DNA from: Candidatus Hodarchaeota archaeon
Lineage (GTDB): Archaea > Asgardarchaeota > Heimdallarchaeia > Hodarchaeales > Hodarchaeaceae
NCBI GenBank assembly: GCA_048886525.1
Contig: JBHLKP010000001.1
Coordinates: 16,751-80,750 of the forward strand
Length of the DNA stretch: 64,000 nt
Direction of reading: 5' to 3'
The notes beneath the pieces were generated by a model. It made no database searches, was not told the origin of the DNA, and was given only the letters and a program-made list of their open reading frames with translations. The translations under genes were made by a program, and so were the position numbers. Position 1 is the stretch's first letter, and every line of letters starts with the position of its first letter. Shown one piece after another: positions 11,277 through 63,984 of this stretch.

Positions 11277-12818
11277 TTGAAACCAGAAAGAAGAGAAATT
11301 TTCATGTCTAAATTGATGGCCTTTATTTTTTTCCTGATTTCATCTCTCATTCTCTGCCTTTCGCTATATTTGTTTATAATTAATCCAGTCATATATATTA
11401 TCAATTCCAATTCGGTTGATCTACATTTAACGTATTATTTCATGTCTTTCTGGGGAATTTCCTTTTCATTGCTAGTTGTTTTAATATCTATCTTCCTTTC
11501 AAAAATAGTTTTTCAAAGGGCAAGGGGATTCAAAGGATACGGCCTTTTAATAGGAATTTTGATCGTTATGATCATTTCATTTTTAACTGGTTTTTTCAAT
11601 TTCGTATTTTACCCTTTATCTCAATCGGATTTTGCTAAAATTTCACAAGTGTTTTTCATTCACTATTCCCTTCTAGAAATTACTGGATACACTATCTTAT
11701 CATATTTAATTAGAAAATTTAGTCAATATACTGAGAATACGTTAAGATTAAAGATTATTTTTATAATCTCGATTATATCAATGTGTTTATCCTTCGTTGG
11801 ATTTTCTACTTCGCTTATTTTTGATTCATTCCTTAGTTCGACAACGATTAGTTCTGAAATAGTATTATTTGTAAGTTATTTCCTTCCTTCTCAGACGGCT
11901 ATTGTATTTTGTTGTTTAATTGGATTTTGGCTGTCAATTGGCTATTGGAAACATAAAAGAGATCAAAAACAAACATTTCCGAGACTTAAAATGGATATTA
12001 AAGGGAAGAAGGTTTGTATATTCATCCCAGCCTACAATGCTGCATATACCCTCCCAAATCTAATAGACCGAATACAAAGCGATGTTAGGGATCAAATTCA
12101 AAAAATAATTGTCATTGATGACCATAGTCCTGATAATACTTACTTACTAGCAGTGGGTTTGAAAAAAGAACAGAATCTATCTAAAATGTCAGTTTTTCGG
12201 ACTATTAAAAATCAAAAATATGGTGGAAATCAGAAATTAGGGTATTCACTAGCGATATTGGAAGATTATGATATTGTTGTGATGTTACATGGAGATGCTC
12301 AATATGCCCCAGAATTAATACCCCAAATAATTGAACCGATTGTGAATGACGAGGCAGATATGGTCTTTGGATCAAGAATGAAAGAGGATCCGTTGAAAGG
12401 GGGAATGCCACCGATAAAATATCTTGGTAATAAGGCTTTAACTTTTGTAGAGAATTGCATTTTAGGAACAAACCTTTCTGAATTTCATTCTGGCTATCGG
12501 GCTTATTCTTGTGATGCACTAATGAAAATTCCGTTTTTACGCTGTACCAATGAATTTCATTTTGATACAGAGATAATCATTCAGTTTGTACTAGCAAAAT
12601 TAAGAATTGTGGAAATCCCAATTCCAACTTTTTATGGAGAAGAAGTATCGCGTGTAAATAAATTCAGTTATGGTTTCGATATTCTTAAAGAAATGATTTC
12701 ATATCTCATAGTTACAAAAGGGTTTGCTGAGAATCCTAAGTTTGATTTAACTGATTTCACTTTTTCAATTAATGACATTAGGACATACATTGAAGATTTT
12801 ATGGTGAAGATTGATTAA
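11277..12818 (+). CDS. membrane-fused GT2 polyprenyl-phosphate glycosyltransferase (GtrB/DPM1-like)
   Basis: About 230 aa of TM helices are followed by a GT-A domain: 'CIFIPAYNAAYTLPNLIDRI', 'IIVIDDHSPDNT', 'MLHGDAQY', 'FGSRM...FHSGYRAY'. The track start is TTG; the ATG at 11304 (MSKLMAF...) is an equally likely start. Confidence 0.8.
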   Translation: MKPERREIFMSKLMAFIFFLISSLILCLSLYLFIINPVIYIINSNSVDLHLTYYFMSFWGISFSLLVVLISIFLSKIVFQRARGFKGYGLLIGILIVMIISFLTGFFNFVFYPLSQSDFAKISQVFFIHYSLLEITGYTILSYLIRKFSQYTENTLRLKIIFIISIISMCLSFVGFSTSLIFDSFLSSTTISSEIVLFVSYFLPSQTAIVFCCLIGFWLSIGYWKHKRDQKQTFPRLKMDIKGKKVCIFIPAYNAAYTLPNLIDRIQSDVRDQIQKIIVIDDHSPDNTYLLAVGLKKEQNLSKMSVFRTIKNQKYGGNQKLGYSLAILEDYDIVVMLHGDAQYAPELIPQIIEPIVNDEADMVFGSRMKEDPLKGGMPPIKYLGNKALTFVENCILGTNLSEFHSGYRAYSCDALMKIPFLRCTNEFHFDTEIIIQFVLAKLRIVEIPIPTFYGEEVSRVNKFSYGFDILKEMISYLIVTKGFAENPKFDLTDFTFSINDIRTYIEDFMVKID

Positions 12819-48421: not shown

Positions 48422-49885
48422 TTATTCTGAGACAGATGATTCATCCATTACCCATTTGCACATGCGTCGTAGGGGTTCAATAGCATCTTGAGGAGTAGAA
48501 AAAGACCCATTAGGCGCAAAACCAAGAGAAACAATTCTTTGGACTCCATGTAGAATCAGCTCATCTCGTATATGTGATTTCAAGCTTTCAGGGTAAATAC
48601 CGACAGTTTGAGTATAGGCATTAACCGATTGAATAGCAGTCTGGATATCATCAATAGGCACTAGATTGACAACTCGTCCGCATAATTTATTCGAAAAATC
48701 CACTGGTTCATCTAACTGACTAACAATAATAGCTCCTTCATTGTATTCACCGCCATATACTTGATAAAAGGTTTCATCCATTCGTAGCCCATCAATATCA
48801 GCTTTTAGGTCTAAATTAAATTCTTTAGGGGGAGTACTAACATGTGATGGAAGATTAATGAGAGCATAATACATATAGGCTCCCAAATGGTTCAAATTTT
48901 CGATGCCTTTTACATTGGTACCTGATTGAACAAAGATTACTCTTGAGTTAACACATGCTTCTTGATTCCATGACCCCACATCAATTGCTGCACGCTGTGC
49001 TGCTACTCTAAGCGTTTGTTCATTTTCAAACGCCTCTTTCCCAATAATTGAAATGCTTAATTTCGGATCTAAGGTGATTAAATCAATACCAGGTTGTAAA
49101 AATTTCGATATATGCTTAATTGAGGCAAAACCACCCCAAGCAATAATTTTTTCAATATTCTCTGGTCGATAAAATTTGGTTTCAAACGCTTCATCTCCCC
49201 CTTTCCAGTACGCTACACTAACACTTTTTGTAATGGGATGATTAGGCTCCATATCAATCATAGTTCTAGCTATTGCTATGGCTGTTAAAGGATCATTACT
49301 AGGCAATTTAATGATTGTATCACATCTAGTACAACAACTTCGAGCAAGAGATCCCGCTGCAACTAAAGGAACGTTACCGGCTATTATATGAACGGTTCGT
49401 GAACCAAAAGCTCGAACAGATACTGTACGTCCATCAATGAGTCTAGATGGAACCCAGTTTTCGAGATATTTTATACCTATCCTTTTTTCTAACATTTCAC
49501 TAAGAACTGGTTTAGATAAAAACATTGGTAAGGATTTGTAGGTTGTAAGCAATACGCTGGGTGTGAGTCCCGATGCTTCACAACCTAATTCAAAACATTC
49601 CTGCAAATAATCATTTTCTTCAAGAACCAATCTTTTTCCTAAATCATCTATAAAATCAAGAATTTCGTCAATACTGAGATTATATAATCCTTTCATGAGT
49701 GAAGGATTTTTTAGAACAATTTTATCAAGATATTTTGAAACATCAGGAGTTACAAACCTAATATTTCCCCACTTACCTCCATATTCTTTTGTATAATCCT
49801 GTATTAGTTTTCCTCTAGCAATTATAGGGATTTGATATTCTGAGAATTGTATTTGATGTTTAAGTTTCTCATAAACCGTCTGCAT
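48422..49885 (-). CDS. LuxC-family acyl-CoA (acyl-protein) reductase
   Basis: 'TVHIIAGNVPLVAAGSLARS', 'IIKLPSNDP', and catalytic-Cys region 'WNQEACVNSRVIFVQ'. LuxC length (487 aa). Confidence 0.75.
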   Translation of the reverse strand: MQTVYEKLKHQIQFSEYQIPIIARGKLIQDYTKEYGGKWGNIRFVTPDVSKYLDKIVLKNPSLMKGLYNLSIDEILDFIDDLGKRLVLEENDYLQECFELGCEASGLTPSVLLTTYKSLPMFLSKPVLSEMLEKRIGIKYLENWVPSRLIDGRTVSVRAFGSRTVHIIAGNVPLVAAGSLARSCCTRCDTIIKLPSNDPLTAIAIARTMIDMEPNHPITKSVSVAYWKGGDEAFETKFYRPENIEKIIAWGGFASIKHISKFLQPGIDLITLDPKLSISIIGKEAFENEQTLRVAAQRAAIDVGSWNQEACVNSRVIFVQSGTNVKGIENLNHLGAYMYYALINLPSHVSTPPKEFNLDLKADIDGLRMDETFYQVYGGEYNEGAIIVSQLDEPVDFSNKLCGRVVNLVPIDDIQTAIQSVNAYTQTVGIYPESLKSHIRDELILHGVQRIVSLGFAPNGSFSTPQDAIEPLRRMCKWVMDESSVSE

Positions 49886-49916: not shown

Positions 49917-51359
49917 TTATTCTTCCTCTTCTAACAAGAAATCGATGAAATTATCGTAAGTTGACTGGACTCCAGCACAGGATATCTTGTCATCCCCTCC
50001 CTGTTTTTCGCTATAGCGTTGAATCTGTCTTTCAATCCAAGCTCCTTTCCAACCACAGCCACAATCATCCCAATGTATCGTGACTTCATCACCAGTAATG
50101 AAACCACCCCAATAAGTTTCAGCTAAGAGGTCATAGAAAGCAAATCGTCCAGTTTGTACTCCTTTTCTTTGTAATGGTTCACCTGTTTCCGGATCTAGAA
50201 TAAAGGGAATAAACCACGGAAAAATGTGGTAATTGCTTTTAGAGCACGATGGTATACCTGCGCCGTTCATTTCTGTCATACCATAGTTATCTTTAATAGA
50301 ATTGACTCCATAGAAGTCACAAACGATATCATACCATCCTTCAGGGGGTTGATAACCTTTCATACCACCACCTGTTGCAATACCACTATTAGGAGCAAAA
50401 ACTTGGCTTAAACCCATTTCATGACCTTTAAGTGCAGTTTCGATAATCGGCTGCCAAACTCCCATGAAAAATACTCTTTTTCCTGCATATTTTGTGAGAA
50501 GTTTATTGATGAATGCTTCAAACATTTTGGGCGCAATTGTTTTCATTTTAATAAATTCGCCTTTATTGTGAACAAGAGCACGGACAAGTTGAAGTTTACC
50601 TAACTCTCCTTTCGCTTTAGCAGCTCTCACACGTCCGGCCAAACTCATAAAATCCGCAGACATAAACCCAGGATAAGCTGTATGATATTCTTCATCTGAT
50701 CCAGCCATCTTTGGAGCGAAATGTCCAATAACGCGTTGTGCCAACTGACGTCCATCTCGGTAACCAGGGAAGAAAACTGGGACATGTTCTTCATGAAAAT
50801 TTATCCCTGTGGTACATTCAAGCATCATGTATATACCGTTCTTGTAATTCTCCATGTCAATCATTGTACGGGGCAGAAAGGAGAGTTTTCCTGTGGTACC
50901 TGAACTATGAACGACCATAAGATCTGATTGGTCTTCTAATTGATTAAGCCATTGGTCAATAGTTTTTGGATCTTTTAAAATAATATTAGAAAAATCTAAT
51001 GTCGAAAATTTAGCTAACCATTTAGTAAGTTGATCAAATCGTCGTTTTTCGATTAGAGAAAGGGGATATGACTTGTAAACGGTATGTGTAAATAAAACTG
51101 GTAAAATATCATTTAATGTATCGATATTAATTACACTTTGTCTCTTAACTAAATCTCTCACAGCTGTAATTCTTGAAGCTAATTCACGGAATCTTTCCTG
51201 CAATGCACGTAATTGAACGTTTTCAAGTTCTTTGCCTTCTAACATGAAACAATCATCTGGTGAATGAAGTTCACGTCTAGGCCAGTTTCGGGGATGCATA
51301 TCCCAATCAGAGGCCTTTTTATCTACATCTACTTGGGTTGAGATTGTCATTCTAAACAA
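49917..51359 (-). CDS. LuxE-like acyl-protein synthetase / adenylate-forming enzyme
   Basis: Adenylation motif 'VVHSSGTTGKLSF', 'YGMTE'. Sits immediately upstream of the LuxC-like gene on the same strand (31-nt gap). Confidence 0.65.
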   Translation of the reverse strand: MFRMTISTQVDVDKKASDWDMHPRNWPRRELHSPDDCFMLEGKELENVQLRALQERFRELASRITAVRDLVKRQSVINIDTLNDILPVLFTHTVYKSYPLSLIEKRRFDQLTKWLAKFSTLDFSNIILKDPKTIDQWLNQLEDQSDLMVVHSSGTTGKLSFLPRTMIDMENYKNGIYMMLECTTGINFHEEHVPVFFPGYRDGRQLAQRVIGHFAPKMAGSDEEYHTAYPGFMSADFMSLAGRVRAAKAKGELGKLQLVRALVHNKGEFIKMKTIAPKMFEAFINKLLTKYAGKRVFFMGVWQPIIETALKGHEMGLSQVFAPNSGIATGGGMKGYQPPEGWYDIVCDFYGVNSIKDNYGMTEMNGAGIPSCSKSNYHIFPWFIPFILDPETGEPLQRKGVQTGRFAFYDLLAETYWGGFITGDEVTIHWDDCGCGWKGAWIERQIQRYSEKQGGDDKISCAGVQSTYDNFIDFLLEEEE

Positions 51360-51519
51360 CGTCCGAAAATAATATTTTCAGATAAGGATTGCTGGAATAA
51401 TTTATATATTATAAATATTTGGAACGCTTTATATAAGCTTTATAAATAAATAAAAAAAAGGTAGTTTTCCAAGTTTTTGAATATAATAACTATAGTCTCT
51501 AATATTTATTGATTGATTG

Positions 51520-54279
51520 ATGACACTTTCTAATAATGATCCTCATAAGCTGTGGAAGCATTACAACTCTACTCTTGAAGAATTTGTGCTTACAAAAGAT
51601 TTAGAGGAAGCAATATCTGAATTTCGCAAAATTATGGATGCTTCTCCTCCAATAGATCTTTTGACCGAATTAGCGAAGCGTTTTATTCAACTTAAACGAA
51701 TTGATGACGCTAAAAAGGCTTATGGTCTAATACTAACAATAGATAATACCCATCGTGAGACTTGGAAACAGCTTTCCTCTTTATATTTCAAACTCAAAGA
51801 TATCCCAAAAGCAGAGTTTTGTTTGAAAAAATATTATACTTTAGCAGGTGGAAATGCTCAACTTCAAAAAGCTAGTAAGGTTAGGCTTGCTAGTTCAGGA
51901 CGATTGAAAAAATTACCTGAAAATCAAGAATTAGGATTGCAAGATGGTATAACAATCCGATCTACTTCTCCCAGAACTGTAATGAGTCTTTCAGAATTTG
52001 AAAGGCGTTTTGAAATTTCAGTTAAAGATCTTCCACTAGCAGTTCAAAGAATAATTCAATTTTCTCAACATCAAATCGTAGATTATCGCTTTTTTGAGAA
52101 ACAAAGTGGACAAATGGGGACAGTAATTGAATCTTTAAATGAGCAAAATCTAATAGACACTTTAAAAAGCAGAAAAATAACCCATCTTTTTCAATTCCAA
52201 GAACAAGCTCTTAATGCTATTAATGCAGATAAAGACGTTTGTATCGTTGCTCCGACTGGAAATGGTAAAACAGAAGCCTTTCTTCTTCCTACACTTCTTA
52301 AGATAAAAAATTTCAAAGATTGTGGTGTACAACTTCTTCTTATTTATCCTATGAAAGCATTAGCTAAAGATCAATTACGTAAAATAGAGGATTTTGCAGG
52401 GATCCTAGGATTATCAGTTAAAGTCTTTGATGGGGATACTTCGCACTATTGGCGTAATAAAATATTTGCAGATCCCCCTGAAATACTTGTTACTAATCCT
52501 GATATTCTACATTATCATCTTGGAATTGGTCGTAACTCTAGTCGGTTTCAAGATCTTCTCATTGGGTTAAAAATTGTTGTTCTTGATGAAATTCATTCAT
52601 ATTCTGGAACATTTGGCTCTAATATGCATTTTATATTAAGACGACTTGAAAGAGTTGTGAATCAAAAGTTACAATTAATAGGCGCCTCAGCTACGGTAGC
52701 TAATGCAAATTCTTTTGCATCAAAGCTTTTAGATAGACAAATTAAGATTATTGAATGTAAAAATGGTCGTAGAGGTCGTTTACATTTCTTAATGCTTGCT
52801 CCTTTTACTGGAATGTCTACAATAGATGGAATGACTAGTTTAGTTAATAGTATTAAAGGAAAAGGTAAGATACTTGTTTTTCAGGATTCTCATAGAAACG
52901 TTGAATTACTTTACCAAAAATTAGGTGGTGCAGCTCAACATGTGGGTATCCATCGTGCTGGTTTAAACTTAAAAGTTCGTGAACAAGTTGAATCAGATTT
53001 TCGTGAAGGGAAAATCGACCTTTTAGTAGCAACACCGACACTTGAACTTGGAATTGATATTGGAGACTTAAATATTGTTGTGACTCCTCCGATTGCTGTA
53101 AACCGGGCAATGCAGCGTATTGGCCGAGCAGGAAGGAAGGGCCAAGAAGCTCTTGCCGTTATCCTGTTAAATGCAGAAGACCCAATTAGTAATTATTATT
53201 TTCATAATCCCGATAGATACTATCAAGATGTTGAGGATGTATTCGTTGACCCCTCAAATCCGAATGTAATCGAAAATCAGTTATTGTGTGCATCACTTGA
53301 TCAACAAATAGAAATCGCTGAATTTCCTGAGTACAAAGATATTTTAAATCGTTTAATTTCCAACAGTCTTCTTAAACAAGTAGGTCATTCAATTTTATTA
53401 CCGACAGAAGCGGGTAAAGAGCGTGCAAGAAAATATTCAATACGTGGTAAGAACCATGAAATTCAAATTAAGATTCGTGGCGGGTCTATAATCGGGAAAA
53501 GGGCTATGCCCCTAGCAATGTTGGAGTTATATCCTGGCGCCTTCTATTATTCAGGGGGTAGAAGATATCGTGTAGCTAGCTTTTATTTTAGCGGAACACG
53601 AGGTAAAGCCGAACTGATTAAACCAAAGAATGTATGGGGACAAACTTTTCCATTATCTACACTGAAACCAGAAATTTTGACTCTTTACTCCCCATTACAT
53701 TCAGTTTATGGTCTTGAAATAGCATATATTGAAACAAAAGTTCTTCAAAGTGTGTATGGATATTCCCTCCAAACTCCGAATGGGACATCTATACAAAAAT
53801 TACGGGATCCACTCTATTATGCTTCTCGTTCAAAGGGTTTAATATTTAGAACTCCTCCTCTCCCTCCTCATATCATTGATATTGATCGAACTACTTATAT
53901 CGCTTCTCTTCATGCTTTGATTCATGTGATTTTACATGCTAGTCTGCCATTTATCGGTGGTCAGCTTAGTGAAATAGGTGGTCTCGCTTTAATTCCTCAA
54001 GGATACATATTATTATATGATCAAGCCTCAGGGTCAGGAGTTTGTGCAATGCTATTAGAAAATTTACCCAAATTATTCCAACGGGCATATCAGATCTTGG
54101 AAGATTGTGATTGTAAAAATCCTCAGGGTTGTCCGCGTTGTACTTTTCTTCCTCGCTGTAGCCATAATAATACTAGATTAGATAAATATGGGGCACGAAA
54201 AATATTGACTTCTATTATTGAAGGGACATCAGTTCCATTGAAAAATAATTATAACGATTTTAACCAGACTTTTCATTAA
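51520..54279 (+). CDS. COG1205/MrfA(YprA)-like DEAD/DEAH helicase with C-terminal DUF1998 zinc module and N-terminal TPR-like extension
   Basis: Motif I 'APTGNGKTEA', II 'VVLDEIHSY', III 'GASATV', V 'LVATPTLELGIDIG', VI 'QRIGRAGRKG'. C-terminal 'DCDCKNPQGCPRCTFLPRCSHNN'. The first ~110 aa are TPR-like. The track ORF opens TTG-ATG; the ATG at 51520 is used. Confidence 0.85.
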   Translation: MTLSNNDPHKLWKHYNSTLEEFVLTKDLEEAISEFRKIMDASPPIDLLTELAKRFIQLKRIDDAKKAYGLILTIDNTHRETWKQLSSLYFKLKDIPKAEFCLKKYYTLAGGNAQLQKASKVRLASSGRLKKLPENQELGLQDGITIRSTSPRTVMSLSEFERRFEISVKDLPLAVQRIIQFSQHQIVDYRFFEKQSGQMGTVIESLNEQNLIDTLKSRKITHLFQFQEQALNAINADKDVCIVAPTGNGKTEAFLLPTLLKIKNFKDCGVQLLLIYPMKALAKDQLRKIEDFAGILGLSVKVFDGDTSHYWRNKIFADPPEILVTNPDILHYHLGIGRNSSRFQDLLIGLKIVVLDEIHSYSGTFGSNMHFILRRLERVVNQKLQLIGASATVANANSFASKLLDRQIKIIECKNGRRGRLHFLMLAPFTGMSTIDGMTSLVNSIKGKGKILVFQDSHRNVELLYQKLGGAAQHVGIHRAGLNLKVREQVESDFREGKIDLLVATPTLELGIDIGDLNIVVTPPIAVNRAMQRIGRAGRKGQEALAVILLNAEDPISNYYFHNPDRYYQDVEDVFVDPSNPNVIENQLLCASLDQQIEIAEFPEYKDILNRLISNSLLKQVGHSILLPTEAGKERARKYSIRGKNHEIQIKIRGGSIIGKRAMPLAMLELYPGAFYYSGGRRYRVASFYFSGTRGKAELIKPKNVWGQTFPLSTLKPEILTLYSPLHSVYGLEIAYIETKVLQSVYGYSLQTPNGTSIQKLRDPLYYASRSKGLIFRTPPLPPHIIDIDRTTYIASLHALIHVILHASLPFIGGQLSEIGGLALIPQGYILLYDQASGSGVCAMLLENLPKLFQRAYQILEDCDCKNPQGCPRCTFLPRCSHNNTRLDKYGARKILTSIIEGTSVPLKNNYNDFNQTFH

Positions 54280-55624: not shown

Positions 55625-56158
55625 CTACAAAGTTAATTTTTCTACTTGCAACATATCACAATATAAGCATTTTAGTTTTTCTTCAATAAAAAATAAAAAT
55701 TTAGTACAATATGGACATCTGATTGTAATCTGACTGATATTATTACTTAATTTTCTTAATTCGTTTTCTTCGTCCATCTTAGGCGAAATTAAAAGCATCA
55801 GACTTTGTTTTTCCTTAATATTAAGAGGAGCTCGTGCTATGTGCAAAATAGCCTGTTTCTTCTCTCCAAGTTGTCGTAAGCATTCAATTATCATCCTATT
55901 GATCATTAGATCATTTGTTGGCAAGTAATTTTGTAGATAAGCAATAGTTTTCGAGTACTCTTTTCTCTGAAAATAAATCAAAGCTAGCTTCTGTTTTACC
56001 TGACTTCTATGACTGGGTGAACTACGAAAGAGGTATTTTAGATTAGCTAATGCTTCATCCCAATTCCCGTTACTAATTTTTTCATCAATTTTATTGAACA
56101 TTTCTGCTTTTTTCTTCTCTGTTTCAGTACAAACACGGAATTTTTTATTTTGTGGCAT
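55625..56158 (-). CDS. TPR-like protein with C-terminal zinc ribbon
   Basis: 'WDEALANLKYLF...KLALIYFQRKEYSKTIAYLQ' is TPR-like. C-terminus 'RCPYCTKFLFFIEEKLKCLYCD' is CxxC-x12-CxxC. Lies 4 nt downstream of the 56163-56723 gene. Confidence 0.5.
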   Translation of the reverse strand: MPQNKKFRVCTETEKKKAEMFNKIDEKISNGNWDEALANLKYLFRSSPSHRSQVKQKLALIYFQRKEYSKTIAYLQNYLPTNDLMINRMIIECLRQLGEKKQAILHIARAPLNIKEKQSLMLLISPKMDEENELRKLSNNISQITIRCPYCTKFLFFIEEKLKCLYCDMLQVEKLTL

Positions 56159-56162
56159 ACTA

Positions 56163-56723
56163 TTATTTCTCCATTTTGGAATGGTGATTTTTAGACCTTT
56201 CCCAAAGTGGAAGAGTTGGAAATCTAATTCGATATCTTTTATTCATAACTCGAAGTACTTCTTTACGAACTTCTGGACTTAATTTTTGGCGTTTAGCACG
56301 TAATCTAATCCTTAAAGCTCCCTGATTTGACATCGTAATTATACCTATTCCTTGCGTCTCAGCCCAAGATAGCTGTTGGTGTTTCGTCACAGAGTCGAGA
56401 TAATCAAATTGCTCGTTAGGACATAATAAGTAACAAAAATCACAAAATTCCTGATATATAGTCGGATGTTGAGCGTGAAGTTGGATCTCAGCTTCGAAGA
56501 AATAAATAGAGCTATCTATCTGATTTATGGCTGCTAAATCAATTCTAATTTGCTCCTGTTTTGTTGGGGTCAATTTTCGGATATCTAAATATTTTGATGT
56601 GATCTGCAATTCAGTGTATGTTTGAAATTTGAGTTTTTCCACAAGAATATTATCAAGATGAATGATTAATTCGGACTCTGTTGTAACTTCTTTAAACCAC
56701 TTATTTTTTGTCTGTTCATGCAT
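56163..56723 (-). CDS. MmcB-like PD-(D/E)xK-fold protein (tentative)
   Basis: 'RIDLAAIN...IYFFEAEIQL...YQEFCDFCYLLCP...GIGIITM' is colinear with the remembered MmcB pattern D..A...vEiK.s..Df...Y...cD.fy..vP...GlGli. Q occupies the Lys position. Confidence 0.4.
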   Translation of the reverse strand: MHEQTKNKWFKEVTTESELIIHLDNILVEKLKFQTYTELQITSKYLDIRKLTPTKQEQIRIDLAAINQIDSSIYFFEAEIQLHAQHPTIYQEFCDFCYLLCPNEQFDYLDSVTKHQQLSWAETQGIGIITMSNQGALRIRLRAKRQKLSPEVRKEVLRVMNKRYRIRFPTLPLWERSKNHHSKMEK

Positions 56724-57096
56724 TTTTCTTGTCCTTTACCCAAAAAAACTAGTCCTGAATTCTTTGAGGGTAAAAACCTCATTATATTATTATATCAATC
56801 ACTTATATATTAGAAAAGCAGTTTAGGGTATAAAACTAGTTAAGCCTCTACTCTGTCGAAAAGTAAATTCACTAAAGAAAAAGGATTTTCAGTAAATCCA
56901 AGCTGAATACGGTTCTTATTTTTCTGTATTCTTTATTATTATAATTAATTGAAGATATATTAAAAAAAATCATTCACTGATTAAAGAGACCAAGTTTTCA
57001 CAAAATATTTCTAGAGAGAATCCAAGATTTTCGAATTTTTAAAGCTCCTAGACAATTCTAGATAGATATAGATTTTCATGTTATTGGTGAGCTTTG

Positions 57097-57408
57097 ATGG
57101 TTAGTAAATCAAGCATTCCTGTAGATGATATACCTTTCCTTGATGAATTATTTGTTAATAGTCCTTTATGTCAAATTTGTGAATATGCGAACATGTTTGG
57201 AGGAGTATGCTCCCTCTTACTCAATCGAAGAGTTCCAGATCTCGTTATAAAAAAGGCTAGAATAATGAGCTGTTCCGCGCATCGAAATTGGGTGCTTGAA
57301 CTGGATGATTCTTTGGTTAATCTATGGAATGAGTCAAATGAGGATGACCCAGTATCATTCAAAAATTCTCTTGACCAAAATAAAAAGCATAACTCCTATT
57401 GGGGATAG
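57097..57408 (+). CDS. small Cys/His-containing protein
   Basis: About 103 aa with 'CQICEYANMFGGVC...MSCSAHRNW'. Its 3' end overlaps the Hef-like ORF by 10 nt. Confidence 0.4.
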   Translation: MVSKSSIPVDDIPFLDELFVNSPLCQICEYANMFGGVCSLLLNRRVPDLVIKKARIMSCSAHRNWVLELDDSLVNLWNESNEDDPVSFKNSLDQNKKHNSYWG

Positions 57409-59315
57409 TTGTTAATTTGAAGACTAAAGAAACCACTCCATATCTTGATAAATTAAATTTCAAACCCTCTTTGAACGAACAACTTCTTTTATCAAAAGTA
57501 CATGACCATAACATTTTGATCGTCTCTTTAAAAAATGAACCATTAATACGAATATTATCCCTAATAATTCTGTTTTACTTGAAGATGAACTCTTCTCCGC
57601 AAGTTTCACCGAAGGTTCTATTATTAATGAAGAGAAACAGTCAACAATCAATCAAATCATTACTAAAAACTTATTTAAACAGTTCAACTACTATACATAA
57701 CAGTTCTATCCTTCCAAATGCTAGACGACAAGATTATAATCGTTTTTCTATTATTCTTTCAACACCAAAAATAGCTAAAAACGATCTAAAAGAGGAATAT
57801 TTCACAAAGGATTTTTTCTCCTTAATAATCATTTTAAATGCAGAAATGGGCTCATCTTCAAGATTATTAAGATTTTTAGTTAATCAATTTACACATAGTC
57901 GAATTATTGGATTTACGCAAATAACTAATCTTGAAAGGCTGGAACAGATATGTAAAAATCTTCATATAAAAGAAGTACACCAGCTGGAAGAAATTCAAAA
58001 GACTCTTGAAAGAAGTAATATACAGTATTATTCAATCCCATTACCAAGAGAGTATTTCTTTGTTCTTGAGTTACTAGATCAACTTCGTCTTCATGAATTA
58101 AATGGATTGCAAAAATTAGGTTATGATGTTTCGCCAAAAAGCACTTCTCGAGAAATTTCTGTTATTCATGAGAGTATAAAAAAAGAAGGAGCTGATAGAA
58201 AGCAACTAGTGGTTACAGGAAATTTACAGCGTATTATAAGACTTCAAAAAATAATTATTTCCCAAGGATTTCACTCTGCTTTACAATACTTCGACTCCTT
58301 GGAGACACGGCAAAAAGTTGAAGAAAATTTTCAAGGAAAACAAGCCATTATCGTTTTTCTAAATGACATAAAGGTACAGAAATTGCGTGAATTTCTCAAA
58401 ATCCAAGAAAATCTTTTCCATCCTAAAACACAAATGATATTAAAAATAATTTCCGAATATAAATCTGGAATTTCAATTGTTACACATAATTATGACAATG
58501 CTCGATTTTTAAAACAATACCTTGAAAAAAATGGTTTTTCTAATATAATACAACTCGAACAACCAATTAGTTCAATGTCGCGACTGAATCTAGAGAAGGC
58601 AATATTACATTTTACACATGGAAAATCGGATATCTGCATAACTAATTCAGTCAATGCATTCATAGCGGGAAATGCTAAAGTTATAATCGTTTATGATGTT
58701 AATGCAGAGATAATTGATACACTAAATGATCTAAGTATTGATATTCCGAAAGTATTCTTACTCGCTAAACAAACAAACGAAGAAACTAGATTTTTTAATT
58801 TAAAAAAGTTAGGAACACGTCGTCAGATTCCAGAGTTGAATCTTAGTATTGTTAATAAAGCTTTAAGGAAGAATAAAGAGCTTAGAAAGAAAGATTCTGG
58901 CACTGGTAATAATATAAATATATTTAATGGTTCAAAAAGCATATTAGCATTTTCTTCGTTGTTATTTGAGTATGGTATTCCCTATACGTTTTCAAAAAAA
59001 AATTATTCAATAATTTTGGATAAGGATATTTTATATCCTGGAATTATTATAAATAAAAAAGCTTGTATATTGTTACTCATTCCAGAGACGATAGAATTCT
59101 TTACTTCAAAACAACTTCTAAAAATCCTTAACGATATACAGGAAAAACACTCTACTATTTACATTGTTATTTCTTACAGAATTATGGATAAAATGAGCTT
59201 CCAGTTTAGATATAATCTCTTTCAAATAACAAATCAAAGTAATTCATATTTATTTTTCCTGATACAAGAGGAAGATCTTAACAAGCTAGTTACTAAAATA
59301 GCTAACCTAGAGTAG
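57399..59315 (+). CDS. Hef/FANCM/XPF-family homologue with degenerate helicase and ERCC4-nuclease motifs (pseudoenzyme candidate)
   Basis: Colinear with the Hef helicase core but catalytic residues are replaced. 'ILIVSLKNEPLIRIL' replaces motif I. 'IILSTPKIAKNDL' matches 'ATPQtieNDL'. 'LIIILNAEMGS' replaces 'DEAH'. Also 'IIGFTQ', 'HPKTQMILKII', 'ICITNSVNAFIAGNAKVIIVYDV'. C-terminal 'NYSIIL..GIIINKKACILLL' sits where ERCC4 has GDY...ERK...D. TTG start, uncertain. Confidence 0.55.
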   Translation: MGIVVNLKTKETTPYLDKLNFKPSLNEQLLLSKVHDHNILIVSLKNEPLIRILSLIILFYLKMNSSPQVSPKVLLLMKRNSQQSIKSLLKTYLNSSTTIHNSSILPNARRQDYNRFSIILSTPKIAKNDLKEEYFTKDFFSLIIILNAEMGSSSRLLRFLVNQFTHSRIIGFTQITNLERLEQICKNLHIKEVHQLEEIQKTLERSNIQYYSIPLPREYFFVLELLDQLRLHELNGLQKLGYDVSPKSTSREISVIHESIKKEGADRKQLVVTGNLQRIIRLQKIIISQGFHSALQYFDSLETRQKVEENFQGKQAIIVFLNDIKVQKLREFLKIQENLFHPKTQMILKIISEYKSGISIVTHNYDNARFLKQYLEKNGFSNIIQLEQPISSMSRLNLEKAILHFTHGKSDICITNSVNAFIAGNAKVIIVYDVNAEIIDTLNDLSIDIPKVFLLAKQTNEETRFFNLKKLGTRRQIPELNLSIVNKALRKNKELRKKDSGTGNNINIFNGSKSILAFSSLLFEYGIPYTFSKKNYSIILDKDILYPGIIINKKACILLLIPETIEFFTSKQLLKILNDIQEKHSTIYIVISYRIMDKMSFQFRYNLFQITNQSNSYLFFLIQEEDLNKLVTKIANLE

Positions 59316-59617: not shown

Positions 59618-61387
59618 TTAATCACTCAGGGAGGGGGTTATATTTAATCTGAAGAGTCGATTCATTTTAGCAAAAAATAGGTCATATGCATTATACAAGG
59701 TTTGAATATCTCGAAATACACGAGTTTTTGGTAAAATACTTCGAAATCTAATAGCCCGATAATCTAAGATAAGACTAGCTGCAAAATCAGATTCTGACCT
59801 AATTCCTCTTCCAATAGCTTGGGAAACATTTCGTGTGACAGGAAGCGTATTACATATATGTTTTGCTATTCTAACACCCCATTTCTGAGCGTAAAGTGAT
59901 TTCAATAAACGGTTGGTAGCATCAGGACGAGGATAAGGAAGTCCAGCTATGATTATTAAAGTTAATAGACTACGATTATTTTTATCAAGAATCTCAATCC
60001 CTTCTGATAATTTACCTCCTAATACTCCGAAAATACATTCATGATTCTTCTTTTTTAAATCGTCGACGAAATAAGGTGAAATTCCTGGATTTTCAATGTA
60101 AATTTGAGGTAATGACATATATGCTAGGATTTTATCTTTAAATTCGTGTGATGTTGCATACACAATTGTATGGAAAGGATTACTTTCATGGAGTCTTTGG
60201 ATAACACTTGCCATAGACTTATATGTTAAGGCAGTTCTTTCGTTATATTTTGAGGTAAATCTGCGATGATAGATGATACCATTCAAACCAAATTGAAAGT
60301 CTGAGGGTATTTGCAATGATGCATAGGATAAGCCATAAAGAGCTTTATAGGAAGATAAAGGTGTAAAAGTTCCTGACATTAAAATTACACGAGAAAAGTC
60401 TCGGTTGATAAATGAGAAAGACTGATGGGGAAATGGATTTAGCTGTAAAAGTCTATTTTCTTCCGAAACCCATATATCACCTCTAGATGTAAGAAAATCT
60501 TTGATCTTCAGCAGATGTGATTTTTCCAAGAGTGATAGTTTTTGATCATGATCTAAAAAGGCATCTAGGCTTGTAGATGATAAATGACGAGGCCTTTCAA
60601 CCCGATTTCTGAATGAAATAATTAGATCTTGCAATTCATCAAATACTTTCAACGGAATAAGAGCTCGAGCTCTATTAAGATCTTCAATGCTAATTTCCGA
60701 TTCAATATTTGCAGTAAAGTTATGCCCTTCGTCAATAATCGCAATTTTTTCAGGAAAAGTGCTTTGGATAAGAAGCTGCGAAAACATTTCTTGCAGATTT
60801 TTACTCCTTAAATAAGTATGAGTAGTCACAACTATGTTTGCATAAGGTATACATCGTTTAATAACATGATAAGGGCAACCAAAATCACTAAATGCTTCTT
60901 TGTAAGTATCTATTGATATAGAACCATTCGTAGCGTTCGAGGTTATTGGAATTTGTTCAACAATTGCAGGAAAGTCTTCTTCAGGAATTGATCTTGTTTG
61001 TTCTAAATATGGACACTTAATCTGTCCACAAACTCCACGAAAAAATTGGATTCGATCGTTTTTAATACAGAGATCTGCTTTTAAAATCAGGGGTACTGCA
61101 GTAAGGTATCCATATTTTTTAGAATTAGCAATTTTATGAATTTCATTTAGAAAAACCCGAAAAACTTGCGCTTTTGTTCTTACAAAAATGTACAATTGAA
61201 AGTTTTTTTCTTTAACCAGAGGTAATGTTGAAATTAGAGCCATAATAGTTTTACCGAATCCAACTGGAGCATGGATCATTACTTTTGGATGTTTTTCTAC
61301 AAATCGAAGAAATTTCGTTTGGTATGTTCGAAGTTCAGGATGAGGAAATAACTGTAATGAGGGTGGAAGATGATTACTATCAATCAT
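59618..61387 (-). CDS. XPD/Rad3-family (DinG-like) Fe-S helicase
   Basis: Motif I 'HAPVGFGKT'. Four-Cys Fe-S insert ('DLCIKN','GVCGQIKCPY','FGCPYH'). Motif II 'IIDEGHNF', 'LMSGTFTP', 'GGKLSEGIE', 'IIAGLPYP', 'QAIGRGIRS'. Confidence 0.85.
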   Translation of the reverse strand: MIDSNHLPPSLQLFPHPELRTYQTKFLRFVEKHPKVMIHAPVGFGKTIMALISTLPLVKEKNFQLYIFVRTKAQVFRVFLNEIHKIANSKKYGYLTAVPLILKADLCIKNDRIQFFRGVCGQIKCPYLEQTRSIPEEDFPAIVEQIPITSNATNGSISIDTYKEAFSDFGCPYHVIKRCIPYANIVVTTHTYLRSKNLQEMFSQLLIQSTFPEKIAIIDEGHNFTANIESEISIEDLNRARALIPLKVFDELQDLIISFRNRVERPRHLSSTSLDAFLDHDQKLSLLEKSHLLKIKDFLTSRGDIWVSEENRLLQLNPFPHQSFSFINRDFSRVILMSGTFTPLSSYKALYGLSYASLQIPSDFQFGLNGIIYHRRFTSKYNERTALTYKSMASVIQRLHESNPFHTIVYATSHEFKDKILAYMSLPQIYIENPGISPYFVDDLKKKNHECIFGVLGGKLSEGIEILDKNNRSLLTLIIIAGLPYPRPDATNRLLKSLYAQKWGVRIAKHICNTLPVTRNVSQAIGRGIRSESDFAASLILDYRAIRFRSILPKTRVFRDIQTLYNAYDLFFAKMNRLFRLNITPSLSD

Positions 61388-63984
61388 TAACTCTCCTCCT
61401 TTCTCCTATCCTTTTCTAGTTCATCAAATAAAGACCTATTGTTCAAATTAAGTTCAAAAAACAAATCTAATATACCAGTATTTGGGTAGACATCCATCTC
61501 TAAATCACAGGACATTTTTTGGAGATGAAAGTAATTATTATCAGGTAAAAAATCATCCAATACGGTTTTTATCGAAGTCGGTTTTATCGAGGAAGCTTGA
61601 AGGGTTCTTTGTATCTCTTCATCAGTTCTTTTATTATGTTCATTCGTAATTTCTAAGTTCAGATTATTACACATCGCGTTTGCTAGTTCGAATAAGTTGT
61701 TAAAATCCTGCCATTCTAGCGATTCTATCATCAATAAATCATAATATTCGGCAACTCGCGCCCATGGAATTGATGTTAGTTTTAAATGCCGTAGATAATT
61801 TAATAATCGGCCAATTAATGTTTTAACTTTGTTATTCGTTTCTAATCGATCTGTTAATGATGAAGATATATCATATAATGATTCTAACCTTTTAAATTCA
61901 TCAAGAGAAACTTCAACTTCTTTTCTACTTAGCGGAGTAGGTAGTGAGGCTAGAAACTTGTACTGTTCATTATAATAGTCTCTTCCTTTCTGATTTATCG
62001 TCCAATATGTAGCACCTTTGTCAGATTGTGTATCCCACAACCCTAAAGGCAAAAATTGATCTAATGATATTTCTCCGTGCTTATTAACCTCTATCAAAGC
62101 AATTGCTTCATCTTTTCCAGCTGGTCGATTGATTAAAAGTTTCAAAATCTTCATTAATAGGTCATATTTATCTGGAGTGAGGCCTAGTGTTTGCGATCCC
62201 CTTTGTTTCATTTCTTTAAGTTCAATGGGTTGGAAATCGATTGAAATATTGGGTGGGTCAATTTTAAAATGAAAACCAACGTTTTGAGGTGCATCTTCTC
62301 GGAATAACAGTCCTTCTCCATCAGATATTCCTAAAAATGGTTGTTTTGAGTAATTATCAGGTAAGAGTTCATGTATAGATCTTACTATCTCCCTGTCCTG
62401 TAAAGAAACCATTTTCAGATAAATATTATTTTTTATTTCCTCAAAAGAATCCATATTCTGAGACAAGGCCTGTAAGCTTTGAGTTCCTAGAATAAGAACA
62501 TTGTTTTGAGAAATTTTATTGCATGCATCCACTAAACTCGATGGAATAACAGCTTTTGATCGTCCATAAGCAGTTTTCCGAGAAAGAAATTCCTCTGAAT
62601 GAGTTAAAATCATACATCCCTCTTCTATTTCAGATAGAAAGTGAAGAAGAAATGCTACAGTAGCTCTTCTAATGAGAGGTGGTTGGGCACCAAACTGAAA
62701 GAAAGTAAGAGTTTTATCACGAGTTAAGGTATTACTATAATGTCCAGCGAAACCCGAATAGTTCACCTCTGGAAATGATCGAAAGTGATCCAAAATCCCT
62801 GCAAGTGAATCTATTGCCATCATATCTGCAAACATCATGTCCGTCTCTGCTTTTTCGACTTGAACATCAGTAATATTCGCTCCTCCGATGTTTAATTTTA
62901 CTTCTTTTAGAGTGAAATTATATATTTCCTCTGCAGTCTTCTTTATTTGTGCCTCAAGAGGTATTGAAAATCTTTGCGATAAGTAATCTGATGTATTAAG
63001 AGAGCTCAAAAGGATTTGGGATATAATATGGGATTTCCATGCAGCTCGAGCTTTTAGATCATTTTTCTGTCCACTTGGAGGAAGTGGAATAGTTACATCA
63101 CATAAATTTAGATGAATATTAGTACCTAAACGAAATATTTGTAAATTTAAATCACCTAATTGTGTTGGATTGTGTTGAAGATACTTTATGACACCATTCA
63201 TCTCATTTCGTGAGTCGATCACGAATATTTGACGATTTGCTCTAGTCTTTGCGAATGATACTGTTAATTTCTGCAATACAGAGATTATGTCTAGGTTATT
63301 ATAACCACAGGTTAACACAGTCCCCCTACTAATTTTTGGTAAACCTACTGGTTGAGAGGAGTCGTCAATTCGAGTACCTATCTTATGGACAACTGGGAGG
63401 TTTTGAACAGGATAATCATAAATAATTCTTGAAGGAACCCTATCTAGTTTGAGAAATGGTTGAATGAGTTTCGAATGAAACCCTTTCAATCCTCTGAAAA
63501 CACTTATTCCTTCTGATATTTTCTCTCCATGTAAATGTGCGTTTAATAATCTTTTACCGGTGATCAATGTGATATTACATCCACTAGCCTCTAAGAGAGT
63601 ATAAGTCATGGATCGACGTTTTAAAAATTCTCTACGTGCTTCACGGAGAACTGAAGGTAGAGTTTTTTCGGATCTAATTCGAAATTTCAAGGAAACTCTA
63701 ACAAGGAGCATTAATCCTGTATATGATTGACCAATTTGATGTTTTTTTGGATTTGTAAGAGGAGCTGGGAAAATTTGTCGGATAATTTGCACACCAGGCT
63801 GACTAGAAGTACGAAAAAGATTGTTTGACGCATCTGTAAAGTCTTTTGAGGGTTGTACACCAAATATCGACACTAGTATTGCTAAAGGTGATGTCAACAG
63901 TTCATCAATATCTCTATTTTGTATCTGAAGTGAAAGTAGTGTTGATTTGTCCTCCAGAAGTCTTGTGGCAAGTTGCGTATTCAA
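61387..63984 (-). CDS. large HerA/FtsK/VirB4-superfamily-like protein with degenerate Walker motifs and C-terminal winged-helix/helical region (tentative)
   Basis: 'RGTVLTCGYNNLDIISVL...RQIFVIDSRNEMNGV' sits where HerA-type ATPases have 'H..ilG.TGSGKS...vlviD..gEy'. 'GCMILTHSEEFLS' is at the Walker B/DEAH position. 'NNVLILGTQSLQALS' resembles 'g.il.tQrpsdl'. Its stop overlaps the XPD-like start (TAATG). Confidence 0.4.
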   Translation of the reverse strand: MNTQLATRLLEDKSTLLSLQIQNRDIDELLTSPLAILVSIFGVQPSKDFTDASNNLFRTSSQPGVQIIRQIFPAPLTNPKKHQIGQSYTGLMLLVRVSLKFRIRSEKTLPSVLREARREFLKRRSMTYTLLEASGCNITLITGKRLLNAHLHGEKISEGISVFRGLKGFHSKLIQPFLKLDRVPSRIIYDYPVQNLPVVHKIGTRIDDSSQPVGLPKISRGTVLTCGYNNLDIISVLQKLTVSFAKTRANRQIFVIDSRNEMNGVIKYLQHNPTQLGDLNLQIFRLGTNIHLNLCDVTIPLPPSGQKNDLKARAAWKSHIISQILLSSLNTSDYLSQRFSIPLEAQIKKTAEEIYNFTLKEVKLNIGGANITDVQVEKAETDMMFADMMAIDSLAGILDHFRSFPEVNYSGFAGHYSNTLTRDKTLTFFQFGAQPPLIRRATVAFLLHFLSEIEEGCMILTHSEEFLSRKTAYGRSKAVIPSSLVDACNKISQNNVLILGTQSLQALSQNMDSFEEIKNNIYLKMVSLQDREIVRSIHELLPDNYSKQPFLGISDGEGLLFREDAPQNVGFHFKIDPPNISIDFQPIELKEMKQRGSQTLGLTPDKYDLLMKILKLLINRPAGKDEAIALIEVNKHGEISLDQFLPLGLWDTQSDKGATYWTINQKGRDYYNEQYKFLASLPTPLSRKEVEVSLDEFKRLESLYDISSSLTDRLETNNKVKTLIGRLLNYLRHLKLTSIPWARVAEYYDLLMIESLEWQDFNNLFELANAMCNNLNLEITNEHNKRTDEEIQRTLQASSIKPTSIKTVLDDFLPDNNYFHLQKMSCDLEMDVYPNTGILDLFFELNLNNRSLFDELEKDRRKEES

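Follow-up and report, generated by a model that had tools for sequence, protein, structure and literature searches.

pHef, a probable non-catalytic paralogue of the archaeal helicase-nuclease Hef in Hodarchaeales

In a 64-kb window (the whole stretch of DNA analysed here, with a G+C content of about 32%) of contig JBHLKP010000001.1 from a Candidatus Hodarchaeota archaeon (GCA_048886525.1), we studied the product of the open reading frame (ORF) at 57399..59315 on the plus strand, for which we use the working name pHef (pseudo-Hef). Sequence comparisons securely identify residues 1-475 of pHef as homologous to the helicase of Hef, an archaeal enzyme of fork repair, including its helical insertion domain. 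The catalytic motifs of this core are replaced across the whole family, and a motif-intact Hef is found in the same genomes. We conclude that pHef is very probably a non-catalytic Hef paralogue. The host belongs to the Hodarchaeales, which agrees with the Asgard origin suspected in a first-pass annotation of the sequence; this archaeal order is often placed closest to eukaryotes.

Homology to Hef and the replaced catalytic motifs

The homology becomes clear only through a family profile, built from a 23-member pHef alignment, and through NCBIfam; searches of Pfam and the PDB with the single sequence were nearly blank. A single-sequence Pfam scan gave just a sub-threshold match to ERCC3_RAD25_C (E=0.0017), and phmmer found no match to the single sequence in the PDB. 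The NCBIfam 'Hef nuclease' model NF010337 matched the single sequence at E=3.6e-21 over residues 95-418 only, and its 75 bits lie far below the equivalog cutoff of 610 bits, so pHef does not score as a functional orthologue of Hef. With the family profile, the helicase structure of Pyrococcus furiosus Hef (PDB 1wp9) was matched at E=5.4e-18 over profile positions 16-460, the next PDB matches being FANCM (E=0.015) and XPF (E=0.066). In a profile-to-profile comparison by hhalign, residues 23-473 aligned with 23 canonical Asgard Hefs (probability 99.9%, E=1e-35), and a profile search of 1.84 billion representatives returned the family members (E<1e-43), then a gap, then Hef-type proteins only. 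When the AlphaFold2 (AF2) model of full-length pHef (mean predicted local distance difference test score, pLDDT, 79.8) was submitted to Foldseek, 1wp9 ranked first (E=2e-22), followed by full-length XPF (E=6e-21) and the FANCM translocase (E=9e-20). The superfamily 2 (SF2) core of two RecA lobes with a Hef-type alpha-helical insertion is recovered by profile, hhalign, Foldseek and AF2 secondary structure. The first-pass annotation had described a Hef/FANCM/XPF-family protein that is colinear with Hef through the SF2 core, and the profile, hhalign, NCBIfam and Foldseek results all support this with significant matches. The same homology is visible to automated pipelines, as some JGI records already label family members 'ERCC4-related helicase'.

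The domains of pHef are laid out as follows.

57399..59315, plus strand: pHef ORF (638 aa counted from TTG 57399, as in the ORF list)
57441..58013, plus strand: RecA1-like half of the helicase-like domain (residues 15-205; MAFFT alignment with canonical Hefs, HMMER alignment to 1wp9, hhalign)
58014..58418, plus strand: Hef-type alpha-helical insertion domain between the RecA-like folds (residues 206-340; AF2 helices H217-335 and alignments)
58419..58823, plus strand: RecA2-like half (residues 341-475; alignments)
58824..58931, plus strand: short, poorly conserved linker (residues 476-511, about 35 aa; 23% mean pairwise identity)
58932..59312, plus strand: pseudo-nuclease domain with a predicted ERCC4 fold (residues 512-638, 127 aa; 43% mean pairwise identity)

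We mapped the helicase motifs on a MAFFT alignment with ten canonical Hefs, with which the HMMER and hhalign results agree. All 23 aligned family members have other residues in place of motifs I, Ia, II, III, V and VI; those of pHef are listed here.

Motif I, GxGKT: N46-E47-P48-L49-I50 (dead segment L44-I50 at 57528-57548, plus strand; the Walker lysine is an invariant L49)
Motif Ia, TPTRPL in canonical Hefs: KRNSQQ
Motif II, DEAH: L146-N147-A148-E149 (57834-57845, plus strand)
Motif III, TAT: T173-Q174-I175
Motif V, TSVGEEGLD: NSVNA--FI
Motif VI, QRxGRxGR: N443-D444-L445-S446-I447-D448-I449

The arginine fingers of motif VI thus correspond to D444, I447 and I449, and the Walker B acidic pair is occupied by Leu, Asn or Gln in the pHef family. 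These replacements are conserved family-wide, and pHef therefore lacks the intact ATPase motifs of Hef orthologues. GKT, DExH, the arginine fingers and the nuclease signature GDXnERKX3D reappear in not one of the 23 aligned sequences.

The sequence strings on which the first-pass annotation had based its reading are all present in pHef. Those taken as matches to the Hef core are IILSTPKIAKNDL (residues 118-130), IIGFTQ (169-174), HPKTQMILKII (341-351) and ICITNSVNAFIAGNAKVIIVYDV (412-434), and those taken as lost catalytic sites are NEP (46-48), LNAE (146-149), NYS (535-537) and INKK (551-554). The central claim, that both the helicase and the nuclease motifs are lost, survives a corrected alignment, which restores no catalytic motif. 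In the alignment with canonical Hefs, LNAE stands exactly where DEAH was said to have been. Walker A is lost as stated, with the lysine replaced by L49, although the placement of NEP was one or two positions off. At the nuclease site the loss of the ERCC4 residues was called correctly, but the register that equated NYS with GDY and INKK with ERK was wrong, by about 12 and about 6 residues. The two outcomes that the first-pass annotation had named as refuting its reading, an absence of profile and structural matches to Hef and the reappearance of catalytic motifs on realignment, were both looked for, and neither occurred.

The C-terminal domain of pHef is accepted here as an ERCC4-fold domain at the level of modelled structure; the sequence-profile test of this assignment failed. 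The full-length hhalign alignment with Asgard Hefs stops at residue 473, before the pseudo-nuclease domain; when residues 505-638 were compared by hhalign with the nuclease domains of canonical Hefs, the probability was a non-significant 1.4%, and a hidden Markov model of the canonical nuclease and tandem helix-hairpin-helix domains, (HhH)2, did not match this part of pHef. We took the sole local match in the C-terminal hhalign (AFSSLLFEYGIPYTFSKKN against ALLSLLFDYEIPIYFSKNY) as chance because it is out of register with the fold. The AF2 model of residues 505-638 is predicted with high scores (pLDDT 90.8; predicted template modelling score, pTM, 0.84), and its topology, b-a-b-b-b-a-b-a-b-a (b, strand; a, helix), is the order expected of an ERCC4 fold. 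In a Foldseek search of the PDB, the top 21 matches of the domain were all ERCC4-fold proteins, with template modelling (TM) scores of about 0.6-0.7, among them Aeropyrum pernix XPF (ApeXPF), ERCC1 (including its central domain), EME1, human XPF, FAAP24, the FANCM pseudonuclease and Zip2-Spo16. Superposition on the Hef nuclease domain gave TM 0.69/0.70 and a root-mean-square deviation of 3.5 A. An alignment whose register agrees with the predicted strands places the catalytic positions as follows.

VDxRE: D is S519 and E is L522
GDY: D is G548 (GDY aligns with Y546-P547-G548-I549)
ERKx3D: E, R and K are L558, L559 and L560, and D is T564

All seven catalytic or metal-binding positions are accordingly Ser, Leu, Gly or Thr. 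The family alignment contains no conserved acidic cluster in the ERCC4-like domain, and neither the GDXnERKX3D nor the VDxRE signature is present.

Outside the catalytic sites, several motifs of the Hef core have been kept. The RecA1-like half keeps the Q-motif residues E27 and Q28 as well as motif Ib (STPxxxKND, with T122 and D129 invariant), and it has become basic, with a median pI of 9.6 across the family against 5.8 in canonical Hefs. In the insertion domain (59% mean pairwise identity within the family), PLPxEYFF, NLxR and SQGF are invariant, the latter two being common to canonical Hef (NLIR...ESQG). The RecA2-like half (63%) keeps the Hef-specific HPK motif (H341-K343), and the KxTxEE motif that follows motif VI is also retained (K457-E462; KQTNEE in pHef). 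The three helicase-like subdomains show 58-63% mean pairwise identity within the family. The linker is probably disordered, judging from pLDDT values below 50 at residues 461-480 and 493-511 of the AF2 model, and the pseudo-nuclease domain is about neutral to slightly acidic (median pI 6.4). The first-pass annotation had called the protein full-length, which was not borne out: every canonical Hef that we tested carries HHH/(HhH)2 domains, while in pHef nothing follows the final helix of the ERCC4-like domain, and Pfam gives no HHH match. Lacking (HhH)2 and with a linker of only about 35 aa, pHef is not strictly full-length relative to Hef.

Could pHef nonetheless be a cryptic enzyme that works with non-canonical residues? 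The retention of Q28, motif Ib and HPK would fit such a protein, but the Walker lysine is an invariant leucine, the Walker B position holds Leu, Asn or Gln, both arginine fingers are replaced and all seven ERCC4 positions are Ser, Leu, Gly or Thr, and we consider this explanation extremely improbable.

The true start of pHef is probably TTG 57417, giving 632 aa, because the called protein P0001 (a public gene call of 632 aa, 100% identical to pHef) and the N-termini of all homologues begin there. The family N-termini align from pHef residue 7 onward, GGGGA lies about 10 nt 5' of TTG 57417, and the stop of the preceding ORF (57406-57408) falls inside the 5' end of the longer pHef frame.

Selection, spread and the canonical Hef of the same genomes

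We found 32 pHef homologues at 40-76% identity. The gene occurs in 16 GTDB species and at 22 syntenic loci with intact ORFs, and the named homologues all come from Hodarchaeales, Hodarchaeota or Heimdall-labelled Asgard metagenome-assembled genomes, showing that the family is restricted to Hodarchaeales-type Asgard archaea. Substitution ratios show purifying selection on both pHef domains. For the least saturated pair of loci (L002 and L018; synonymous divergence, dS, about 0.3), the ratio of nonsynonymous to synonymous substitution rates (dN/dS) is 0.23 in the helicase-like domain and 0.25 in the pseudo-nuclease domain. Other pairs, whose dS is saturated, give 0.05-0.16 and 0.13-0.28, respectively. 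Many positions are invariant in the family alignment.

These results bear on whether pHef is a decaying pseudogene, the relic of a duplicated Hef. The disappearance of every catalytic motif, together with the absence of the C-terminal domain in one subgroup, is what decay would produce. However, 22 loci from 16 species, with identities as low as 40%, have intact ORFs, both domains give dN/dS values far below 1, many positions are invariant, and the single apparent truncation turned out to be an assembly gap, so that we regard decay as effectively refuted. That truncated pHef, 542 aa and without an XPD neighbour in CP070760.1, was rejected as biology because of a 100-N assembly gap. The run of 100 N lies in the pHef gene at about 11627-11730 of locus L006 (about 1,305,800 of CP070760.1); the record bears the label 'chromosome'. 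This gap accounts for the 'partial' annotation there, and possibly also for the non-syntenic genes downstream.

A search for a canonical active Hef elsewhere, which the first-pass annotation had proposed, found a motif-intact Hef in the same genomes, making pHef an extra paralogue. Canonical full-length Hef (DEAD, Helicase_C, ERCC4 and HhH) is common in Hodarchaeales. On the 3.16-Mb record CP070760.1, a canonical Hef of 746 aa (P0201) and a pHef (P0024) lie about 1.3 Mb apart, and the 4.94-Mb record CP070695.1 carries both a canonical Hef (P0193) and a pHef locus (L011). Since canonical Hef with intact motifs shares these chromosomes, pHef is a paralogue and not the Hef of its host. Within the 64-kb window and the pHef loci we found no canonical Hef, XPF or (HhH)2 gene.

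The C-terminal domain is not present in all lineages. The pHef of five species genomes (L019-L023) is about 485 aa long and stops behind the helicase-like domain, and the XPD-like gene follows it directly. We identified the canonical Hef in two of the assemblies whose pHef is helicase-like only, B3_Heim (NJBF01) and YT2_004 (JAEOTM01), and there Hef is also short (517-521 aa), ending just after its helicase domain. The short Hef occupies a locus orthologous to that of the full-length Hef of CP070760.1, with no nuclease remnant nearby. Two further helicase-only Hefs come from metagenomes. Helicase-only canonical Hefs with intact motifs (514-521 aa), all from this one Hodarchaeales sublineage, were located at the following positions.

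L024, 5001-6566: helicase-only canonical Hef
L025, 5001-6554: helicase-only canonical Hef
L026, 3001-4545: helicase-only canonical Hef
L027, 3001-4566: helicase-only canonical Hef

In both closed genomes that encode a full-length Hef, pHef includes the pseudo-nuclease domain. Loss of the pseudo-nuclease domain from pHef together with loss of the nuclease and (HhH)2 domains from Hef is what a contact between the pseudo-nuclease and the Hef nuclease would predict.

Proposed function and relation to known systems

The gene of a second, small protein is strictly linked to that of pHef. In 22 of 22 loci surveyed for synteny, a small ORF with four invariant cysteines lies directly upstream, separated from pHef by 2-22 nt or overlapping it.

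57094..57408, plus strand: four-Cys small ORF (104 aa here, 87-93 aa in orthologues; C26, C29, C39 and C60 invariant, CxxC-x9-C-x20-C)

From this arrangement the two genes are probably co-transcribed, and the four-Cys protein is a candidate obligate partner of pHef. It has no match in Pfam, NCBIfam, PADLOC or PDB sequences, including with a profile. The protein may bind Zn or Fe-S.

We lean towards a role for pHef as a non-enzymatic scaffold or a subunit that binds DNA structures. Such a protein would neither hydrolyse ATP nor cut DNA; its part would be structural or that of an adaptor, much as for ERCC1, FAAP24, Zip2 or the helicase-like domain of XPF. It would form a complex with the co-transcribed four-Cys protein, and its conserved, now basic helicase-like core would bind branched DNA, partner proteins or both. 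Where present, the pseudo-nuclease domain would pair with a second ERCC4-fold domain, for which canonical Hef is the most plausible source, and the resulting dimer would be asymmetric, with only one of its two subunits catalytic. There are precedents among related proteins. ERCC4-fold domains are dimerisation modules whose non-catalytic members bind DNA or recruit other proteins (PMC6320978, PMC3763369, PMC6411835). The helicase-like domain of XPF recruits partners and is needed for full activity, its own function being called elusive, and the Hef insertion domain has been given a role in the recognition of branched DNA (PMC6320978). Archaeal Hef and XPF themselves have been described as homodimers of identical active subunits (PMC6320978). 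By analogy with these systems, a heterodimer formed specifically by pHef and Hef is a tentative suggestion. The more elaborate scheme, in which a Hef duplication gave rise to an asymmetric Hef-pHef heterodimer joined through the ERCC4-fold domains and assisted by the four-Cys protein, seems to us unlikely as a whole.

Several observations weigh against this set of proposals. The (HhH)2 domain, which forms the main interface of the XPF-ERCC1 dimer, is absent from pHef, and it is a predicted structure that links the C-terminal domain to ERCC4, the sequence similarity being not significant. pHef and Hef are unlinked in the genome, lying about 1.3 Mb apart in CP070760.1. The co-loss of the two domains is seen in one lineage and is therefore probably a single event, and it is possible that the co-loss genomes carry a separate short XPF gene elsewhere. 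Residual nucleotide binding by pHef also appears possible, given the retained Q-motif glutamine. Finally, the pseudo-nuclease domain is dispensable in one sublineage, and the core function should therefore reside in the helicase-like domain, which is kept in all lineages.

Some of the same evidence would suit a pHef that acts alone and binds branched DNA without catalysis, as a monomer or homodimer in the style of Zip2-Spo16 or FANCM-FAAP24, marking or protecting recombination or fork intermediates and not paired with Hef. Archaeal Hef and XPF form homodimers through their ERCC4-fold domains (PMC6320978), the structural matches of pHef include Zip2-Spo16 and the C-terminal domain of FANCM, the RecA1-like domain of pHef is basic, and its gene is unlinked to that of Hef. 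The subgroup with a helicase-like domain only has moreover kept the gene, the four-Cys partner and the synteny. On the other hand, pHef has no (HhH)2 DNA-binding domain, the pI of its pseudo-nuclease domain is only 6.4, and a stand-alone binder does not predict that the pseudo-nuclease domain and the nuclease domain of Hef would be lost together. We consider this explanation unlikely.

The first-pass annotation had further suggested that pHef bears on how the pseudo-domains of eukaryotic XPF and FANCM arose; this was not supported, as we found no specific affinity (15-17 bits) and the position of pHef in the tree is that of a long branch. The pHef family profile scores XPF at 14.7 bits and FANCM at 16.8 bits, compared with 149 and 362 bits for a canonical Asgard Hef profile. 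In a neighbour-joining tree (200 bootstraps), pHef is monophyletic (100%), but its long branch attaches among others that are also long, at a point that is not interpretable. Sequence comparison identifies archaeal Hefs as the nearest relatives of pHef, and a Hodarchaeales-specific duplication of Hef followed by degeneration fits the evidence. At present, pHef is best described as an archaeal parallel to the eukaryotic pseudo-enzymes and not as their demonstrated ancestor. It would be tempting to regard pHef as directly ancestral or orthologous to a non-catalytic eukaryotic component, either the helicase-like domain of XPF or a partner of the ERCC1, FAAP24 or SHOC1 type, because its host belongs to the Hodarchaeales and its domain logic resembles that of the eukaryotic pseudo-domains (PMC6320978). 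This is very improbable, however, given the weak scores against XPF and FANCM, the closer relationship to archaeal Hefs and the long-branch position in the tree. Since XPF retains an active nuclease and (HhH)2, both of which pHef has lost, pHef is not a simple XPF precursor.

Comparison with known systems places pHef closest to archaeal Hef (P. furiosus; 1wp9 for the helicase, 1j22-1j25 for the nuclease), its best match in both sequence and structure. The two share the SF2 core, the helical insertion, HPK, TPQxxxND (motif Ib), a KxTxDE-like motif, and an ERCC4 fold after the helicase in the same order. pHef differs from Hef in the loss of the ATPase motifs and nuclease residues, in the absence of (HhH)2, in its linker of about 35 aa and in being a second, divergent copy. 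With XPF (ERCC4), pHef shares the domain order and a helicase-like domain without GKT or DEAH residues that is kept as a non-enzymatic module (PMC6320978), but XPF has an active GDXnERKX3D nuclease, (HhH)2 and pairing with ERCC1. FANCM-FAAP24 offers another Hef-derived architecture with a dead ERCC4-like C-terminal domain (PMC3763369), and both the FANCM translocase and its pseudo-nuclease are structural matches of pHef; unlike the ATPase-dead pHef, FANCM is an ATP-active translocase, and it has (HhH)2. ERCC1, EME1, FAAP24 and Zip2(SHOC1)-Spo16 resemble pHef in having nuclease-dead ERCC4-fold domains kept for dimerisation and binding to branched DNA (PMC6411835, PMC5859969, PMC6320978). They differ from it in having no Hef-type helicase-like domain, and they mostly keep (HhH)2. 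A helicase-like domain in SHOC1 was looked for in PMC5962103 and was not confirmed there.

The closest matches to the pHef profile outside the family are rare Asgard Hef variants, at 124 and 115 bits. A handful of such sequences (P0183, P0042, P0299, P0298 and P0045) have intact helicase motifs and (HhH)2 with a degenerate ERCC4 domain, in which the ERK motif is lost and Pfam ERCC4 finds no match, and they thus represent a FANCM-like architecture in archaea. Four of them (P0183, P0042, P0299 and P0045) resemble pHef in this degenerate domain but differ from it in keeping GKT, DEAH, the arginine fingers and (HhH)2, and neither of the two closed chromosomes with a pHef was found to encode them. 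We rejected a widespread third, FANCM-like paralogue in the same genomes because the type is rare and was not found on closed chromosomes.

XPF and FANCM each carry one dead Hef-derived domain and, to our knowledge, eukaryotic XPF-family nucleases are all heterodimers of one catalytic and one degenerate subunit. In our searches of the literature on Asgard archaea, Hodarchaeales or Heimdallarchaeota together with Hef, XPF, FANCM or ERCC4, we met neither a description of the pHef family nor any account of the double inactivation, the partner gene or the coexistence with Hef. pHef emerges as a tractable archaeal system for studying the fixation of pseudo-enzymes and the role of a dead Hef-type helicase-like domain. 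If the heterodimer with Hef were real, it would be an archaeal version of the design principle of XPF-ERCC1, MUS81-EME1 and FANCM-FAAP24, and the replacement of homodimers by heterodimers could have preceded eukaryogenesis or run parallel to it. This significance is tempered by the finding of no specific phylogenetic link to the eukaryotic proteins.

Gene neighbourhood

Our analysis also draws attention to the genes around RadA and an XPD-like helicase, a conserved neighbourhood of which little has been characterised. It includes the four-Cys protein, a PD-(D/E)xK-like protein and a protein of 865 aa. Around pHef, the window contains the following genes in addition to the four-Cys ORF.

51517..54279, plus strand: protein with TPR, DEAD/DEAH helicase and MrfA-type Zn-binding (MZB/DUF1998) domains (920 aa; Pfam; TIGR03817 E=5.5e-80; syntenic)
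55625..56158, minus strand: conserved TPR-like and zinc-ribbon-like protein (177 aa; syntenic; weak TPR matches; C-terminal CPxC...CLxC; adjoins the 186-aa gene)
56163..56723, minus strand: divergent neighbour (186 aa, 155-186 aa across loci; invariant IDLAA and FFEAE; upstream of pHef in most loci)
59618..61387, minus strand: XPD/DinG-family (Rad3-like) helicase, convergent with pHef (Pfam DEAD_2 and Helicase_C_2)
61387..63984, minus strand: 865-aa protein, whose stop overlaps the start of the XPD-like gene (translationally coupled, same operon)

The XPD-like neighbour named in the first-pass annotation is indeed an XPD/DinG-family helicase by Pfam, TIGR00604 and PADLOC. Its Walker A (GFGKT) and DEGH motifs are intact, and the FeS-domain region has four cysteines. 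It matches TIGR00604 rad3 at E=2.5e-35 (122 bits), and matches more strongly, over its full length, the PADLOC model of the type IV CRISPR-associated DinG (E=5e-54, 182 bits); no CRISPR/Cas context was seen around it. This helicase may be a DinG/XPD paralogue and not the XPD orthologue of the organism. Of about 18 loci that could be evaluated, 15 have the XPD-like gene downstream of pHef. The 865-aa protein shows 57% mean column identity over six orthologues and has no match in Pfam, NCBIfam, PADLOC or, as a profile, the PDB; in other loci that reach that far (L004 and L005), RadA lies immediately upstream of its gene on the same strand.

The conserved neighbours, namely the XPD/DinG-like helicase, the MZB helicase and RadA, would place pHef in recombination or fork repair. 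They also raise the question of whether pHef serves the module of RadA and the XPD/DinG-like helicase as an accessory or regulatory subunit that recruits or modulates the helicase. The adjacency of the convergent XPD-like gene in 15 of about 18 loci, with the 865-aa gene and RadA following on its strand, speaks for such a role. The helicase-like domain of XPF, for comparison, is a protein-interaction platform (PMC6320978), and it is used in protein recruitment by SLX4 and XPA. Convergent genes are not co-transcribed, however, three loci have no XPD-like gene within 4 kb downstream, and adjacency across a single order may be just inherited gene order, which together make an accessory function quite unlikely.

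The invariant motifs of the 186-aa protein resemble the PD-(D/E)xK nuclease signature, and its profile has no match in Pfam, NCBIfam, PADLOC or the PDB. The protein also has a conserved C-terminal PLWERS tail. We did not find support for reading the region as a defence island, because pHef matches no PADLOC model and the locus is syntenic across 16 species. The best PADLOC similarities of the 920-aa helicase (BrxHI, DrmA and DruE) look like generic helicase matches. In L002-L005, LuxC-like and LuxE-like genes flank the gene of the 920-aa-type helicase. In the window, the genes at 48422..49885 and 49917..51359, both on the minus strand, match these LuxC-like and LuxE-like genes (acyl-protein reductase/synthetase) by position and size.

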